In this document: positions 19,115-47,651 of the stretch, piece after piece | How positions within the stretch are numbered: position 1 is the stretch's first letter | Layout of the letters: every line of letters begins with the position of its first letter | DNA from: Enterobacteria phage T6 | Direction: 5' to 3' (one strand) | DNA length: 64,000 nt | Sequence record: MH550421 | Translations under genes and position numbers: made by a program | Notes under the pieces: model-generated | Seen by the model: only the letters and a program-made list of their open reading frames with translations | What the model was told of the DNA's origin: nothing | Database searches by the model: none

Positions 19115-20922
19115 TGAAACAAAATATTAATATCGGTAATGTTGTTGATGATGGTACCGGTGACTACCTGCGTAAAGGTGGTATAAAAATAAATGAAAAC
19201 TTTGATGAGCTTTATTATGAGCTTGGTGATGGAGATGTTCCATATTCAGCCGGTGCCTGGAAAACTTATGATGCTTCAACTGGCCAAACATTAAAAGCTG
19301 AGTGGGGGAAATCATACGCTATTAATACCTCTTCTGGAAGAGTAACTATAAATCTTCCAAAAGGAACTGTCAATGATTACAACAAGGTAATTAGAGCTAG
19401 AGACGTATTTGCTACATGGAACGTCAACCCAGTTACATTAGTAGCTGCTTCCGGCGATACGATTAAAGGGTCTGCAGTACCAGTTGAAATTAATGTTCAA
19501 TTTAGCGATTTAGAGTTAGTTTATTGTGCTCCAGGACGTTGGGAATATGTCAAAAATAAGCAAATTGACAAAATTACCAGTTCAGACATTAGTAATGTAG
19601 CTCGTAAAGAATTTTTAGTCGAAGTCCAAGGACAAACAGACTTTTTAGATGTTTTCCGTGGAACTAGTTATAATGTAAATAACATCAGAGTAAAACATCG
19701 TGGTAACGAATTGTATTACGGCGATGTATTTAGCGAAAACAGCGATTTTGGCTCTCCGGGCGAAAATGAAGGAGAATTAGTTCCTCTTGATGGATTTAAT
19801 ATTCGATTAAGACAGCCTTGTAATATTGGTGATACTGTTCAAATTGAAACATTTATGGATGGCGTATCACAGTGGAGAAGTTCATATACAAGACGTCAAA
19901 TTAGATTGTTAGATTCAAAATTAACGTCAAAGACTTCTTTAGAAGGAAGCATTTACGTTACTGATTTATCAACAATGAAATCAATTCCGTTTTCAGCTTT
20001 TGGATTAATTCCAGGTGAACCTATTAATCCTAATTCTCTTGAGGTACGTTTTAATGGAATTTTACAAGAATTGGCTGGAACAGTTGGAATGCCATTATTT
20101 CATTGCGTTGGTGCCGATTCAGACGATGAAGTAGAATGCTCTGTTTTAGGTGGAACTTGGGAACAGTCTCATACAGACTATTCAGTTGAAACTGATGAAA
20201 ATGGCATACCGGAAACATTGCACTTCGATAGAGTATTTGAGCATGGCGATATTATCAATATCACCTGGTTTAATAATGATTTAGGTACATTATTAACAAA
20301 AGATGAGATTATTGATGAAACTGATAATCTCTATGTATCGCAAGGACCAGGAGTAGATATTTCCGGTGATGTAAATTTAACAGACTTCGATAAAATTGGT
20401 TGGCCAAATGTAGAAGCAGTTCAATCTTATCAACGTGAATTTAATGCTGTTTCAAATATCTTTGATACGATTTATCCTATTGGAACTATATATGAAAACG
20501 CTGTTAATCCAAATAACCCTGTTACATATATGGGATTCGGCTCATGGAAATTATTTGGGCAAGGAAAAGTTTTAGTTGGATGGAATGAAGATATTTCGGA
20601 CCCTAACTTTGCTCTAAATAACAACGATTTAGATTCGGGTGGAAATCCTTCGCACACTGCGGGCGGAACAGGTGGTTCTACTTCTGTTACATTGGAAAAT
20701 GCTAATCTTCCTGCAACTGAGACAGATGAAGAAGTTCTAATAGTTGATGAAAATGGATCAGTCATTGTTGGTGGATGTCAATACGATCCAGATGAATCTG
20801 GTCCAGTTTACACGAAATACCGTGAAGCTAAAGCATCTACTAACTCTACTCACACTCCGCCAACATCAATAACTAACATTCAACCGTATATTACAGTTTA
20901 TCGTTGGATAAGGATTGCATAA
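19114..20922 (+). CDS. 10: gp10 baseplate wedge / short tail fibre attachment
   Basis: 602 aa; synteny. Confidence 0.9.
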
Positions 20923-30373: not shown

Positions 30374-32353
30374 ATGACTTTATTATCTCCGGGCATTGAG
30401 CTCAAAGAAACTACGGTTCAAAGCACCGTGGTTAATAACTCTACTGGTACAGCAGCTTTGGCCGGTAAATTCCAGTGGGGTCCTGCTTTTCAGATTAAAC
30501 AGGTTACAAATGAAGTAGATTTAGTTAATACTTTTGGTCAACCAACCGCTGAAACTGCTGACTATTTTATGTCTGCGATGAATTTCTTGCAGTACGGAAA
30601 TGACTTACGAGTAGTTCGTGCTGTTGATAGAGATACCGCTAAAAACTCATCGCCAATTGCTGGTAATATTGAATACACAATTTCTACCCCAGGTAGTAAC
30701 TATGCGGTTGGAGATAAAATCACGGTCAAATATGTTTCAGATGATATTGAAACTGAAGGTAAAATTACCGAAGTAGATGCTGATGGAAAAATTAAGAAAA
30801 TTAATATTCCTACCGCAAAAATTATCGCTAAAGCGAAAGAAGTCGGTGAATATCCAGCACTAGGTTCTAACTGGACTGCGGAAATTTCTTCGTCTTCCTC
30901 TGGTTTAGCTGCAGTAATAACTCTTGGAAAAATTATTACTGATTCTGGTATTTTATTAGCTGAAATTGAAAATGCTGAAACTGCTATGACAGCGGTTGAC
31001 TTTCAAGCAAATCTCGAAAAATACGGAATTCCAGGAGTAGTAGCTCTTTATCCAGGCGAATTAGGCGATAAAATTGAAATTGAAATCGTATCTAAAGCTG
31101 ACTATGCAAAAGGAGCTTCTGCATTACTCCCAATTTATCCAGGCGGTGGTACTCGTGCATCTACTGCTAAAGCAGTGTTTGGATATGGACCACAAACTGA
31201 TTCACAGTACGCTATTATAGTTCGTCGTAATGATGCTATTGTTCAAAGCGTTGTTCTTTCAACTAAGCGTGGTGAAAAAGATATTTACGATAGTAACATC
31301 TATATCGATGACTTTTTCGCAAAAGGCGGCTCAGAATATATTTTTGCAACTGCACAAAACTGGCCAGAAGGCTTCTCTGGAATTTTAACTCTGTCTGGTG
31401 GATTATCATCAAATGCTGAAGTAACAGCAGGAGATTTGATGGAAGCTTGGGACTTCTTTGCTGACCGTGAATCTGTTGATGTTCAGTTGTTTATTGCGGG
31501 TTCTTGTGCCGGTGAATCTTTAGAAACAGCATCTACTGTCCAAAAACACGTCGTTTCAATTGGGGATGCTCGCCAAGATTGCTTAGTATTGTGCTCACCA
31601 CCGCGTGAAACTGTAGTTGGAATTCCTGTAACTCGTGCAGTAGATAATTTAGTTAACTGGAGAACTGCGGCAGGTTCATACACTGATAATAACTTTAATA
31701 TCAGTTCAACCTATGCAGCAATCGATGGTAACTACAAATATCAGTATGACAAATATAATGATGTGAATCGTTGGGTTCCATTAGCAGCTGATATTGCTGG
31801 TTTATGCGCAAGAACTGATAACGTATCTCAGACTTGGATGTCTCCAGCTGGTTATAATCGTGGTCAGATTCTTAACGTTATTAAACTGGCTATTGAAACT
31901 CGCCAGGCTCAGCGCGACCGTTTATACCAAGAAGCTATCAACCCAGTAACTGGTACAGGTGGTGATGGTTACGTATTGTATGGTGATAAAACAGCTACTT
32001 CTGTTCCTTCTCCGTTTGATCGTATTAACGTTCGTCGTCTGTTTAATATGTTGAAAACGAATATCGGACGTAGTTCAAAATATCGTTTGTTCGAATTAAA
32101 TAACGCGTTTACTCGTTCATCATTCCGCACAGAAACTGCCCAGTACTTACAGGGAATTAAAGCTCTTGGTGGAATTTATGAATATCGTGTAGTTTGCGAT
32201 ACAACAAATAACACTCCGTCAGTAATTGATAGAAATGAGTTTGTTGCAACATTCTACATCCAACCGGCTCGTAGTATAAATTATATCCAACTTAATTTCG
32301 TCGCAACTGCTACTGGTGCAGATTTTGATGAGTTAACTGGTCTTGCAGGTTAA
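30374..32353 (+). CDS. 18: gp18 tail sheath protein
   Basis: 659 aa; synteny. Confidence 0.95.
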   Translation: MTLLSPGIELKETTVQSTVVNNSTGTAALAGKFQWGPAFQIKQVTNEVDLVNTFGQPTAETADYFMSAMNFLQYGNDLRVVRAVDRDTAKNSSPIAGNIEYTISTPGSNYAVGDKITVKYVSDDIETEGKITEVDADGKIKKINIPTAKIIAKAKEVGEYPALGSNWTAEISSSSSGLAAVITLGKIITDSGILLAEIENAETAMTAVDFQANLEKYGIPGVVALYPGELGDKIEIEIVSKADYAKGASALLPIYPGGGTRASTAKAVFGYGPQTDSQYAIIVRRNDAIVQSVVLSTKRGEKDIYDSNIYIDDFFAKGGSEYIFATAQNWPEGFSGILTLSGGLSSNAEVTAGDLMEAWDFFADRESVDVQLFIAGSCAGESLETASTVQKHVVSIGDARQDCLVLCSPPRETVVGIPVTRAVDNLVNWRTAAGSYTDNNFNISSTYAAIDGNYKYQYDKYNDVNRWVPLAADIAGLCARTDNVSQTWMSPAGYNRGQILNVIKLAIETRQAQRDRLYQEAINPVTGTGGDGYVLYGDKTATSVPSPFDRINVRRLFNMLKTNIGRSSKYRLFELNNAFTRSSFRTETAQYLQGIKALGGIYEYRVVCDTTNNTPSVIDRNEFVATFYIQPARSINYIQLNFVATATGADFDELTGLAG

Positions 32354-32998
32354 TTGATTATGGGGCTTCGGCCCCTATTCTCGAGGAAACAAGTGATTAT
32401 TTCTAAGTTTGTTACAATAAAACCAAGAAATCATTCAAAAATGTGGTCGACAATTCTGGGATATAAAGTATCATATCATGATACAGTATCTGTTCCAATA
32501 GAATTAATGCCAAAGAATAGTAATAAAATAGTTGACGCTAAATGTGATTTGTGTGGTACTAAATTTAGTAGAAGCATTCAGCTTTTAAATAGAACACCCA
32601 CACATGCATGTAGAAAATGTAGCATTAAACAAGTTGCTATCAAAAATTCGGAAGTTCAATCTGGAATAAGCAGACCATGGCAAAGAGGTGATAAACATCC
32701 TCGATGGACTGGTAAAAGAAAAGAGTTTGCATTATATGCTAGTAGAGTTCATTCTATAACTAAGTCAGCTAAAATAAGAAAAATCTGGTCAAAATGGCCG
32801 AATGCTGATAAAATAGGAGTGTGTGGCGTAGAAGGTGCTTACCAACTCGATCATAAAGTATCTATCAAATATGGATTTGATAATTTAATTCCGCCGGAAA
32901 TTATAGCAAGCGTAAAAAATTTAGAAATAATCACTTGGGAATCTAACCGAGAAAAGTCAAAAAGAAATAGCGTAGATCTTTGGGATTTACTAGAATGA
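32354..32998 (+). CDS. putative HNH / His-Me finger endonuclease inserted between 18 and 19
   Basis: Cys-rich segment CDLCGTKF...HACRKCS; C-terminal YQLDHKVSIKYGFDN...N resembles HNH core; true start may be internal. Confidence 0.55.
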   Translation: MIMGLRPLFSRKQVIISKFVTIKPRNHSKMWSTILGYKVSYHDTVSVPIELMPKNSNKIVDAKCDLCGTKFSRSIQLLNRTPTHACRKCSIKQVAIKNSEVQSGISRPWQRGDKHPRWTGKRKEFALYASRVHSITKSAKIRKIWSKWPNADKIGVCGVEGAYQLDHKVSIKYGFDNLIPPEIIASVKNLEIITWESNREKSKRNSVDLWDLLE

Positions 32999-42707: not shown

Positions 42708-43839
42708 TTATGGATAGGTATAGATGATACCAGTTTCTAAAGCAGTTTTATGAATGATGTATCCATTACGTGATTCTTGAACATCAACTTCTGGATAGTC
42801 TTTCATCATCTTCTGAAGAGTGTAACGATGCAGGTAGTATTTACTATCTGGATCTTCAGTTTTCCAATCTTTACCTTCTTCAGTCATTTTTTGAATTTCA
42901 TCCATAACCCACCAACCGCACCAGATGTAAGCTGAAGTACGATGTGGAAGAGGATGAACATAAGGTAATTCACCTTCTGGTTCTGGAGCAACTTTATCAG
43001 TTACCTGAACTTGACCTTCTGCTGTAATAGTTTTGCTATCATAATCAGTAGCAGTAACGACGGCAGTCACTTCAATAGTTTGACTTCCAATAGATGAGGT
43101 ATCAACGGTATATACATTAGTTGACCCTTCTACAGGAGAAGAATCTTTCTTCCATGAATACGCAATTTGCGCTTCTTCTGGAGCATCAGTAACATTAGCA
43201 GTAAATGTAGCCGAAGCATCTTGTTGAACGTTAATAGAAGGAGGAGTCAATGTAACCTGTGGATTCATTGTCTTCTTATTAACCGTTAATGATACTTCAT
43301 TAGAAGTAACTTCCTTTTCATTGTAATTTTCTGCAGTTACTTGGGCTACGCATTTAATTCTTTTTAACTCCACTTGTAGTTGGAGTGTAATTGAATGTAG
43401 CGGAAGTTGCTTCGTCCACAGGAGAACCGTCAACGTACCACTGATATGTGGCGTTTGCGCCCGATGGCTGCGAAGCTAAAGTAGCGGTAAATTCAACAGC
43501 TGTTCCGATTACTCCAGCATCAGGGCTACCAGGAGTTACGGCTAAAGTAGTTGTTTGTGTCTTATTTTGAACTGTGATAGTTGTACTAATTTCAGCTGTT
43601 TCGGGACTACTATCGGCAACTTGATTTGTTGCAACTACTTTAATAGTCTTTTGACCGGCAGGTCCTTTTAGTACATAACTAAAAGTTGCTGACGTTTCTT
43701 CCTGTGGAACATCGTCTACAGTCCAAGCATAGGTAATAGTTCCACCTCCAGTTTCACCACTGGGTGTAGCAGTAAACTGCTTAGTTTCATCAATAACCCC
43801 TGTTGGTGTTTTAGGAGTTATATCAACTGTAAAAGCCAT
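42708..43839 (-). pseudogene. hoc: hoc (Ig-like capsid decoration protein) split by +1 frameshift
   Basis: ORFs 43354..43839 and 42708..43433 are two frames of one Ig-repeat gene; frame changes at an A5 run near 43363-43367. Confidence 0.7.
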
Positions 43840-43848
43840 AAGTTATCC

Positions 43849-44529
43849 TTATTTTAATGTTACGAAAGAAGAATTACGTGTTTCACGAATTAGAACTGAT
43901 CCGTCGCGATTAATGTAATAAATTAAGCTAAATAAAGTTTGGTGTGCCGACGCATGTTCAAAACTAGTTGGTTGAGATTTCCAATCCGGAGTTTCAGCGA
44001 TCCATTGATAAATCCACCAAGGAACAGTGCAGAATCCTGGATTTTTTCCAATCAGCTGAAGATTCGGACTAAAGTTTTCCGGAAGAGTAAATACAGACGG
44101 CTTTTCAGATTCAATAATCTCAGCTACAGCCTGTTCGAATTTTTCTTCAACAAAAGGAGTATCTTCAATCAAAACTGAGGTATTTTCAGGAATTTTATCA
44201 GTTTCTACTACTTCAATTTTAATGTCAGATTTAATCGGAGAATCAATCAGAAGTGCTGCTTCTGGATTGACTTCTTCATCGTCATATTTTAATCCCTCTG
44301 CGGCATCAGCAGCATCAATTAAGTCTTTAATAGATAACCCATCAGTCTCTGGCATAGGTTCACTAGCGAGCTTCTGGAGGGCTTCTTCAATATCATTAAC
44401 GATATTATCAAAAGATTTATTCTTTTTGACCTTTATACCAAACTGTTCAGCATATTCAGCTAATTTAGCTTTAGCTTCTTTGTTATCATCAAGAGCCTTC
44501 AGCTCTGCAATATAATCTTTATCTATCAT
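43849..44529 (-). CDS. inh: Inh, inhibitor of prohead protease
   Basis: 226 aa at the position between hoc and segE. Confidence 0.8.
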   Translation of the reverse strand: MIDKDYIAELKALDDNKEAKAKLAEYAEQFGIKVKKNKSFDNIVNDIEEALQKLASEPMPETDGLSIKDLIDAADAAEGLKYDDEEVNPEAALLIDSPIKSDIKIEVVETDKIPENTSVLIEDTPFVEEKFEQAVAEIIESEKPSVFTLPENFSPNLQLIGKNPGFCTVPWWIYQWIAETPDWKSQPTSFEHASAHQTLFSLIYYINRDGSVLIRETRNSSFVTLK

Positions 44530-44578: not shown

Positions 44579-45196
44579 ATGTACCACTTTGTATATGAAA
44601 CAACAAATCTAATAAATGGTAAAAAGTATATAGGAAAGCACTCTACTGATGACTTGAATGATGGTTACCTTGGTTCCGGTAAGGCAATTCAGCAGGCTAT
44701 AAAGAAATATGGTGAAAACAATTTCTCTAGAACAATACTAAAAGAGTTTAAAACTTCCGAAGAAGCGTACATGTATGAAGAAGAAATTATAACTCCTGAA
44801 CTAATAAAAAGCAAAAATTATTATAATATGAAACCTGGCGGAATTGGTGGAATTGTTATGACTACAGAGGTTATAGCAAAGATGAAAGAATCTTCCGCTA
44901 AAAGATTTGAAAACTCACCGGGCACGGTATTAGGTAAAACTTGTTATACTAATGGAACTAAAAATATTTTTATTAAACCTGGAGAACTTGTTCCAGAAGG
45001 ATTTGTAAAAGGGATGGTTCATCCTAATAGAAAGTCCAGAAAAGGATGTAAAGTCAAACCGACTACCACAGGAACTTTTTGGGTCAATAATGGCGCAATA
45101 AATAAATTAATACAACCAGACGGTATTATTCCCGACGGATTTATTAAAGGTCGTCTCATGAAAAGAGATTCTAAAGGCAAATTTAGTAAGGCATAA
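44579..45196 (+). CDS. segE: GIY-YIG homing endonuclease, SegE-like
   Basis: 205 aa; FVYETTNLINGKKYIGKH...GYLGSGKAIQQ. Confidence 0.85.
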   Translation: MYHFVYETTNLINGKKYIGKHSTDDLNDGYLGSGKAIQQAIKKYGENNFSRTILKEFKTSEEAYMYEEEIITPELIKSKNYYNMKPGGIGGIVMTTEVIAKMKESSAKRFENSPGTVLGKTCYTNGTKNIFIKPGELVPEGFVKGMVHPNRKSRKGCKVKPTTTGTFWVNNGAINKLIQPDGIIPDGFIKGRLMKRDSKGKFSKA

Positions 45197-45198
45197 TT

Positions 45199-46706
45199 AT
45201 GGATATTAAAGTACATTTTCACGACTTCAGTCATGTACGCATCGATTGTGAAGAGAGCACGTTTCACGAATTAAGAGATTTCTTTTCGTTTGAGGCCGAT
45301 GGATATAGATTTAATCCTCGCTTCAGATGTGGCAACTGGGATGGACGAATCCGTCTTTTAGATTATAATCGACTTCTTCCATTCGGCTTAGTCGGGCAAA
45401 TTAAAAAGTTCTGTGATAACTTTGGCTATAAAGCCTGGATTGACCCACAAATTAACGAAAAAGAAGAATTATCAAGAAAAGATTTTGATGAATGGCTTTC
45501 TAAATTAGAAATCTATTCAGGAAATAAAAGAATTGAACCACACTGGTATCAAAAAGATGCAGTGTTCGAAGGATTAGTTAATCGTCGTAGAATTCTTAAT
45601 CTTCCAACATCTGCAGGTAAATCTTTAATTCAAGCTTTGCTTGCGCGGTATTATTTGGAAAATTATGAAGGTAAAATTCTTATCATTGTTCCAACAACTG
45701 CTCTGACAACTCAGATGGCTGATGACTTTGTTGACTATCGTTTATTCAGTCATGCAATGATAAAGAAAATCGGTGGCGGAGCATCAAAAGATGATAAATA
45801 TAAAAATGATGCACCAGTCGTTGTTGGTACATGGCAAACTGTAGTTAAACAACCGAAAGAATGGTTCTCACAGTTTGGAATGATGATGAATGATGAATGC
45901 CATCTTGCTACAGGAAAAAGTATTTCATCTATCATATCAGGATTAAATAATTGCATGTTTAAATTTGGTTTGTCTGGTTCATTACGTGATGGAAAAGCCA
46001 ATATCATGCAGTATGTTGGAATGTTTGGTGAAATATTTAAGCCAGTAACGACTTCTAAGTTAATGGAAGATGGACAAGTAACTGAGCTAAAAATTAATAG
46101 TATTTTTCTTCGCTATCCCGATGAGTTCACTACTAAATTAAAGGGAAAAACTTACCAAGAAGAAATAAAAATTATTACTGGGCTTAGTAAAAGAAATAAA
46201 TGGATCGCTAAATTAGCTATTAAGCTTGCGCAAAAAGATGAAAACGCTTTTGTCATGTTTAACATGTATCGCATGGTAAAGCTATTTTCGATTTAATTAA
46301 AAATGAATACGATAAAGTTTATTACGTATCAGGGGAAGTTGATACCGAAACCCGCAATATAATGAAAACCTTAGCTGAAAATGGTAAAGGAATAATTATA
46401 GTAGCTAGTTATGGTGTATTTTCTACTGGTATTTCAGTTAAAAATCTGCATCACGTTGTTTTAGCGCACGGTGTTAAATCAAAAATCATTGTATTACAAA
46501 CAATCGGTCGTGTATTACGTAAGCATGGTTCTAAAACAATCGCAACAGTCTGGGACCTCATAGATGACGCGGGCGTAGTTTCTAAATCAAAAACATCTTC
46601 TAAAAAATACTCGCATTTAAACTATCTTTTAAAACATGGAATTGATCGTATTCAGCGTTATGCTGATGAAAAGTTTAATTATGTGATGAAAGAGGTTAAA
46701 CTTTGA
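45199..46706 (+). pseudogene. uvsW: uvsW helicase split by -1 frameshift
   Basis: ORF 45199..46296 (helicase motif PTSAGKS) ends after frame change at TTTAAC near 46258-46263; downstream frame continues HVSHGKAIFDLIKNEYDKV... to 46706. Confidence 0.7.
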
Positions 46707-47395
46707 ATTATAAATTAATATATGATAATTTAATTAATAGAGCCCAGAATCGGGCTCGCCTTAATGAATACACTGAAACACATCATATAATTCCTAGATG
46801 TATGGGTGGTACAAATGATAAGTGTAATTTAGTAGAACTAACGGCTGAAGAACATTTTATAGCCCATAAACTTTTAGCTAAAATTCATCCAAACCATTAC
46901 GGTATAATTAAAGCTGTTATATGTATGGGGATGAATTCAAATACTCATGAAAGACACGTCAATAAATCTTACGCATGGGAACGTCGTAAAATGGCAGAAC
47001 TTCAATCCGGCGAAGGTAATCCATTTTACGGAAAACACCATACGGAAGAACATAAACAATATATGTCAAAACTCATGAAAAGTCGTCCAATTACATGGGG
47101 AAATAAAATTAGTAAAACTAAAAGAATGAACCCAACGAAATGGACTGAAGAAGCTAAAAGATTACATTCAATCAATCAATCGGGTAAAAATAACGGCATG
47201 TATGGAAGGAAACATTCCGCTAAATCTATTCAGAAAATTAAAGATAACATGCCAGATAATTCAGGAGCTAATAACCCAGCTGCTAAACCTATAGAAGTAA
47301 ATGGTGTTAAGTATAAATGTATGAAAGATGCTTCTAAAGCTACTGGATTATCAATGTACAAACTAAGAATACTTAGAAAAACAGTTAATTTATAA
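46703..47395 (+). CDS. freestanding HNH endonuclease, paralog of the 13/14 HNH; probable TTG start
   Basis: ETHHIIPRCMGGTNDKCNLVELTAEEHFIAH; N-terminus MNYKLIYDNLINR matches [13 protein letters not shown] at 25579; GAGG RBS before TTG. Confidence 0.75.
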   Translation: MNYKLIYDNLINRAQNRARLNEYTETHHIIPRCMGGTNDKCNLVELTAEEHFIAHKLLAKIHPNHYGIIKAVICMGMNSNTHERHVNKSYAWERRKMAELQSGEGNPFYGKHHTEEHKQYMSKLMKSRPITWGNKISKTKRMNPTKWTEEAKRLHSINQSGKNNGMYGRKHSAKSIQKIKDNMPDNSGANNPAAKPIEVNGVKYKCMKDASKATGLSMYKLRILRKTVNL

Positions 47396-47408: not shown

Positions 47409-47651
47409 TTGGAGAAAAAGATGTTACTAGAATTTAAACAATTTCTTTATGAAGCTTCTATTGATGAATTTATGGGTAAAATTGCCTCTTGTCAAACATT
47501 AGAAGGTTTAGAAGAACTTGAAGCTTATTATAAGAAAAGAGTCAAAGAAACTGAATTAAAAGATACTGATGACATCTCTGTGAGAGATGCTTTGGCAGGA
47601 AAAAGAGCTGAATTAGAAGATTCAGACGATGAAGTAGAAGAAAGCTTTTAA
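47409..47651 (+). CDS. uvsW.1: small acidic helical protein (UvsW.1-like)
   Basis: 80 aa with RBS GGAGAAAAAG; position downstream of uvsW. Confidence 0.65.
   Translation: MEKKMLLEFKQFLYEASIDEFMGKIASCQTLEGLEELEAYYKKRVKETELKDTDDISVRDALAGKRAELEDSDDEVEESF

Follow-up and report, generated by a model that had tools for sequence, protein, structure and literature searches.

UvsW of phage T4 is the closest described counterpart of the protein considered here. It is an SF2 helicase (PDB 2OCA and 1RIF) with the domain set UvsW_N, ResIII/DEAD, and Helicase_C. Knock-outs of T4 uvsW are viable, are hypersensitive to hydroxyurea and damage, and suppress the DNA-arrest phenotype of recombination mutants, and dar and uvsW are alleles (PMC3016281). 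The first-pass annotation of the DNA studied here had described a uvsW null as viable in T4 with recombination and repair phenotypes. The same gene has been hit in phage T6 itself. According to a preprint by Loeff et al., T6 (DSM 4622) escapers from the Shedu defence system carry uvsW frameshift or nonsense (premature-stop) mutations together with further scattered mutations (bioRxiv 10.1101/2023.08.10.552762). Furthermore, the genuine divergence among T4 stocks was reported to include one-base frameshifts in auxiliary genes (PMC8573959).

In this work, the uvsW locus of T6 was analysed in a stretch of 64,000 nucleotides of the sequence record MH550421 (positions 64001-128000), hereafter called the window. 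Published position 110260 of MH550421 corresponds to position 46260 of the window, and all coordinates below are those of the window unless the record is named.

The interrupted uvsW reading frame and its surroundings

The uvsW gene occupies 45199-46706 on the plus strand and is interrupted by one missing A. Direct reading of the sequence gives TTTAAC at 46258-46263 (+), where the comparators have TTTAAAC; codon 355 thereby becomes AAC in place of AAA (Lys), and reading continues out of frame. The 5' frame (45199-46296, +) encodes 365 aa, namely native residues 1-354 and 11 out-of-frame residues (NMYRMVKLFSI) before a TAA stop, and the ORF list gives its C-terminal end as KDENAFVMFNMYRMVKLFSI followed by the stop. 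This product is identical in sequence to the GenBank protein AXN58216.1, 'helicase [Enterobacteria phage T6]'. In the -1 frame, translation gives a TAA at 46260-46262 and then an open frame from 46263, which begins with HVSHGKAIFDLIKNEYDKVYYVSGEVDTETRNIMKTLAENGKG and ends with the stop at 46704-46706. This 3' part (46263-46706, +) encodes native residues 356-502 and the stop, so that the C-terminal region and the greater part of motor domain 2 lie here. The two frames overlap by 33 nt (46263-46296), and the earliest in-frame start of the downstream frame is an ATG at 46362, which gives 114 aa. The frame break had been correctly observed, and chance is no issue since the sequence was read directly. 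Both the ORF list and the translation confirm that the N-terminal ORF stops and that the C-terminal helicase continues in the -1 frame to 46706. The proposed one-base deletion in TTTAAC also stands, with exactly one gap relative to the T6 genome AP018814. On the other hand, two details need adjustment. Restoring one A does produce a single continuous frame, although the T6 protein is then 502 aa long and not about 503; and an A is indeed missing, but the supposed 'A-run' is merely AAA shortened to AA.

The restored 502-aa protein has Pfam matches to UvsW_N (residues 2-82), ResIII/DEAD (113-260), and Helicase_C (338-442), which is the same domain set as in T4 UvsW, and it aligns to residues 1-502 of 2OCA with a handful of substitutions. 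The 365-aa ORF retains UvsW_N (E = 7.8e-43), ResIII (E = 8.7e-17), and DEAD (E = 7.7e-13), and the N-terminal part of T6 UvsW matches the corresponding residues of both 2OCA and 1RIF. No Pfam match to Helicase_C was obtained in the 365-aa ORF; this domain sits in the -1 frame. Native residues 355-502, including almost all of the Helicase_C region (338-442), are lost from the 365-aa product, and the 114-aa C-terminal fragment reaches 20.2 bits for Helicase_C against a Pfam cut-off of 23.5. Unlike in T4, the frame in the window is broken at codon 355; it takes one additional A, which AP018814 has, to bring motor domains 1 and 2 together in one polypeptide. Because an SF2 helicase requires both motor domains within one polypeptide, the 365-aa fragment is predicted to be helicase-dead. 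It would keep the N-terminal DNA-binding domain and motor domain 1, and it could not function as a helicase. A genuine deletion would remove the second motor domain in its entirety and make the allele a null.

The surroundings of uvsW are largely those of T4. Annotations and Pfam matches on the neighbouring ORFs give the gene order inh, segE, uvsW, uvsW.1, uvsY.-2 in both T6 and T4. The inh gene (43849-44529, -) belongs to this T-even neighbour set, and directly upstream of uvsW stands a gene for a segE-type GIY-YIG homing endonuclease (44579-45196, +; Pfam SegE_GIY-YIG and GIY-YIG), which equals T4 segE in position and length. Unlike T4, T6 has a gene inserted between uvsW and uvsW.1, which encodes an HNH/NUMOD3 homing endonuclease of 230 aa (46703-47395, +; Pfam NUMOD3 and a weak HNH match) and has the annotation of a homing endonuclease in AP018814, too. 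The gene starts with a TTG that overlaps the stop codon of uvsW. The similarity between T6 and T4 ends 15 nt before the end of uvsW, where the last codons read KEVKL in T6 and KTVNL in T4, and therefore the endonuclease insertion has changed the last uvsW codons. The uvsW.1 gene (47409-47651, +), which encodes the small partner protein of UvsW, is intact (Pfam UvsW-1, E = 1.7e-30). As a separate matter of annotation history, uvsW was annotated as 587 aa and fused with uvsW.1 in the old T4 reference AF158101 (2001-3764), and the T4 resequencing table corrects codon 503 for a frameshift and a stop. The sister phage thus had a sequence error of its own at this locus, a historical one that is already known.

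Occurrence of the deletion in T6 sequences and related phages

When all 64,000 bases were compared with AP018814, an independent genome of T6, three differences emerged, namely two substitutions and one gap. The gap is the one in uvsW (TGTCATGTTT-AACATG in the window, TGTCATGTTTAAACATG in AP018814). AP018814 encodes an uninterrupted 502-aa UvsW, and in an assembly look-up the intact T6 protein was found on AP018814 only. A further T6 sequence is that of T6-Hancock, a T6 stock of 1972 which was sequenced by Subedi and Barr and whose variants were tabulated against MH550421 (PMC8573959). One row of this table reads '110260 ins T>TA', frameshift_variant c.1064dupA p.Asn355fs, uvsW, helicase (PMC8573959), and therefore a second independent T6 also has the extra A. 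A fixed T6 pseudogene or null allele is thus not reproduced in the independent T6 sequences, with AP018814 intact and T6-Hancock carrying the extra A.

The related phages agree with these two sequences. Among the full-gene matches listed from the phage collection, all 60 of 60 span the query plus one base. A 121-base probe matched 499 records with a top identity of 99.2% and none at 100%, and the full-length rows sampled across this ranking span 122 bases without exception (59/59). In IMG/VR, neither the 37-mer nor the 19-mer of the deletion allele gave a match, and the intact 20-mer is present there on two contigs; the deletion-allele 19-mer had no match in the GTDB genomes either. Four metagenome matches of this 19-mer were set aside as chance, their flanks being unrelated. 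No other assembly on record encodes the 365-aa or the 114-aa fragment. The possibility that AP018814 and not the window is in error was rejected, since the extra A is shared by T6-Hancock and all relatives listed. Judging from these comparisons, the uvsW deletion is derived and private to MH550421, and it is absent from the two other T6 sequences and from all related records examined. Under every reading, the break is no property of phage T6. The finding is already known, since GenBank annotates the CDS in its truncated form and a published supplementary table lists the variant.

The only substitutions between MH550421 and AP018814 in the 64 kb are at 20810 (A/G, gene 10) and 32835 (G/A). Neither is listed for T6-Hancock, and therefore both are private to AP018814; the T6 stocks from the three sources are otherwise nearly identical across the window. 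Position 32835 falls within a 214-aa ORF (32354-32998, +), which follows the gene for the tail sheath protein gp18 (30374-32353) and precedes the next gene of the tail. This ORF has no Pfam match, contains Cys-X2-Cys pairs, and is labelled 'putative head morphogenesis protein' in AP018814; its sequence features suggest that it may be a mobile endonuclease-like insert.

Another broken frame in the window is that of hoc, the gene for the head outer capsid protein (42708-43839, -), whose coding sequence is divided between a 161-aa ORF and a second ORF that overlaps it. At the break, near 43355-43365, an A-run contains an additional G: T6 reads GTTAAAAAGAATTAA, whereas vB_EcoM_F1, in which hoc is intact, reads GTTAAAAAAATTAAA. 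MH550421 and AP018814 have this frameshift in identical form, and the T6-Hancock variant table has no entry for it. Being shared by the T6 sequences, it appears to be genuine and a reproducible feature of T6. The breaks in hoc and uvsW are alike in that each is a one-base frameshift in a dispensable T-even gene, but that of hoc is reproducible across the T6 sequences and that of uvsW is not.

Private states of MH550421 and the origin of the missing base

The 16 published T6-Hancock variant rows were classified with AP018814 as a third sequence. The cumulative offsets of 6, 5, 4, 5, 7, 8, and 9 reproduce the 9-bp length difference of both records, and the predicted amino-acid changes equal those of the published table; the mapping of the rows is therefore sound. 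In 15 of the 16 rows, AP018814 has the T6-Hancock state, which makes MH550421 the outlier, and row 84408 is the sole row private to T6-Hancock. As reconstructed from the variant table and AP018814, the states private to MH550421 include four isolated transitions, the uvsW deletion, and a number of further lesions. Gene 59 would have an extra G after codon 5, with an altered start, and seven substitutions within 70 bp at its 3' end, by which the stop codon is removed. An extra G in gene 52 would cut the gp52 topoisomerase from 442 to 383 aa, and an extra C in ac would cause a frameshift altering the end of the 51-aa Ac protein. By the same reconstruction, arn.1 has an extra TC, not present in T4 either, which gives an arn.1 fusion, and e.3 has a 4-base complex change. 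These anomalies lie outside the window, at about 62773, 147709-148384, 161017, 163394, and 164706 of MH550421. The patch of seven substitutions in gene 59 was found in none of 491 related records. Its origin by recombination or contamination with another T-even phage was rejected, as the best of the 491 records differs at 7/7 positions. Two signs of an artefact, namely privacy to one record and other non-reproducible anomalies that break ORFs, were thus found, the states outside the window being reconstructed indirectly.

Before the origin of the missing A is considered, it has to be asked whether the break could be bypassed in the phage. Full-length UvsW might be produced from both frames via programmed or leaky -1 ribosomal frameshifting or via transcriptional slippage. 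Within the overlap, G-GTA-AAG (46275-46281) might permit a slip of tRNA-Lys from AAG to AAA, giving a full-length product in which six residues are substituted; such slippage would amount to trace leakiness at most. However, no in-phase slippery heptamer X XXY YYZ is present in 46248-46296, the single A-AAG being a one-tRNA slip site only, and there is no long A/T run for polymerase slippage. The two-frame arrangement is absent from the relatives, with a single frame in 60/60 listed full-gene matches and 59/59 sampled 121-base matches, so nothing is conserved that could serve recoding, which we regard as extremely improbable. Split genes do occur in T-even phages, and this general precedent, together with the open C-terminal ORF, is what would favour an active helicase formed from the 365-aa N-terminal fragment and a separately translated 114-aa C-terminal fragment (ATG 46362). 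On the other hand, no Shine-Dalgarno-like motif was found upstream of 46362, and a start at this site would leave out about one third of the Helicase_C region at its N-terminal side (native residues 355-388). The 114-aa fragment also stays below the Pfam cut-off (20.2 vs 23.5 bits), and such an arrangement was found in no relative; its likelihood is close to nil. Recoding and split-gene expression are therefore rejected, given that there is no slippery heptamer, Shine-Dalgarno sequence, or conservation, and even when taken jointly they are very improbable. The sole live explanations are the two that the first-pass annotation had offered, a uvsW null and a homopolymer error, although the word 'homopolymer' is a weak label for a run of three A's.

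We prefer the latter in a broader form and think that, on balance, the missing A is probably an error of the MH550421 record (base-calling, assembly, or consensus) and not of the phage. It would mean that T6 proper carries an intact, ordinary uvsW from which the MH550421 consensus dropped one A. The deletion is private to one record, and this record appears unreliable at other sites as well, with non-reproducible, ORF-breaking anomalies grouped at 147.7-148.4 kb and at 161.0-164.7 kb. The affected runs are one to three bases long, whereas a spectrum of replication slippage would favour long runs. Regional clusters and short runs together make local sequence-quality problems look likelier than a slippage spectrum. 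Moreover, the genuine T6 frameshift in hoc recurs in independent T6 sequences, and the uvsW frameshift does not. Several points speak against an error of the record, however. The uvsW site is outside both anomaly clusters, and the local sequence looks clean, with no further MH550421-private difference within the 64-kb window. None of the 392 homopolymer runs of at least five bases in the window differ, so MH550421 is not full of homopolymer errors. The record is reportedly Illumina-based (PMC8573959), and a consensus indel in AAA is unusual for that technology. In addition, uvsW is dispensable and its loss is selectable, and the MH550421 states outside the window were reconstructed indirectly, from the published variant table and AP018814.

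The clean sequence around uvsW, where 64 kb contain no MH550421-private change besides the deletion and 0/392 long runs are affected, is in turn an argument that the deletion is a true mutation private to the sequenced T6 stock. We consider such a uvsW-null lineage with a helicase-dead 365-aa fragment a serious possibility, while leaning against it. A stock of this kind would replicate by the late R-loop/origin-type mode and not by the normal recombination-dependent one, like the T4 uvsW (dar) mutants. Its allele would be of the same kind as the T4 nulls, with helicase function lost in a dispensable late gene, and the phenotypes to be expected are sensitivity to hydroxyurea and UV, reduced recombination, and suppression of DNA arrest (PMC3016281). 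A stock mutation would agree with the viability of the T4 uvsW knock-outs (PMC3016281), with the one-base frameshifts in auxiliary genes seen in T4 stock divergence, and with the isolated transitions in MH550421, which resemble real divergence. The gene 59 lesion of MH550421, too, belongs to the class of defects suppressed by dar/uvsW loss. The Shedu escapers indicate that uvsW-null T6 readily arises and is selectable (bioRxiv 10.1101/2023.08.10.552762). However, these escapers were deliberately selected from DSM 4622; its wild type is Shedu-sensitive and its escapers are uvsW-mutated, which implies functional uvsW there, and nothing ties MH550421 to such a selection. The deletion is also absent from both other T6 sequences, and its companion anomalies are artefact-like (regional clusters, seven unique substitutions in 70 bp, a truncated gp52). 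Finally, AAA is a poor target for slippage in a gene that holds 15 runs of 5-6 bases.

A more far-reaching version of the stock mutation can be proposed, which we put forward tentatively and regard as rather unlikely. The MH550421 stock would really be uvsW-null (dar-type), perhaps after selection for suppression of the gene 59 lesion that it carries, or after growth on a host with a defence that senses DNA ends, for example Shedu. The other private lesions (genes 59, 52, ac, arn.1) would then reflect genome instability after the loss of UvsW. If this were true, users of the MH550421 stock or reference would have a recombination-defective, Shedu-insensitive 'wild type'.

MH550421 as a reference for phage T6

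Papers on phage defence and comparative papers refer to MH550421 for the genome of T6, and in its deposited form this record encodes a truncated UvsW. The loss of UvsW alters the replication mode, repair, and the sensitivity to at least one defence system, Shedu; therefore, users of the record should know that the other T6 sequences carry an intact gene. No new biology is indicated, and the importance of the finding is practical and not conceptual: MH550421 should be used with caution as a reference, and AP018814/NC_054907 is the safer T6 reference at the uvsW locus.
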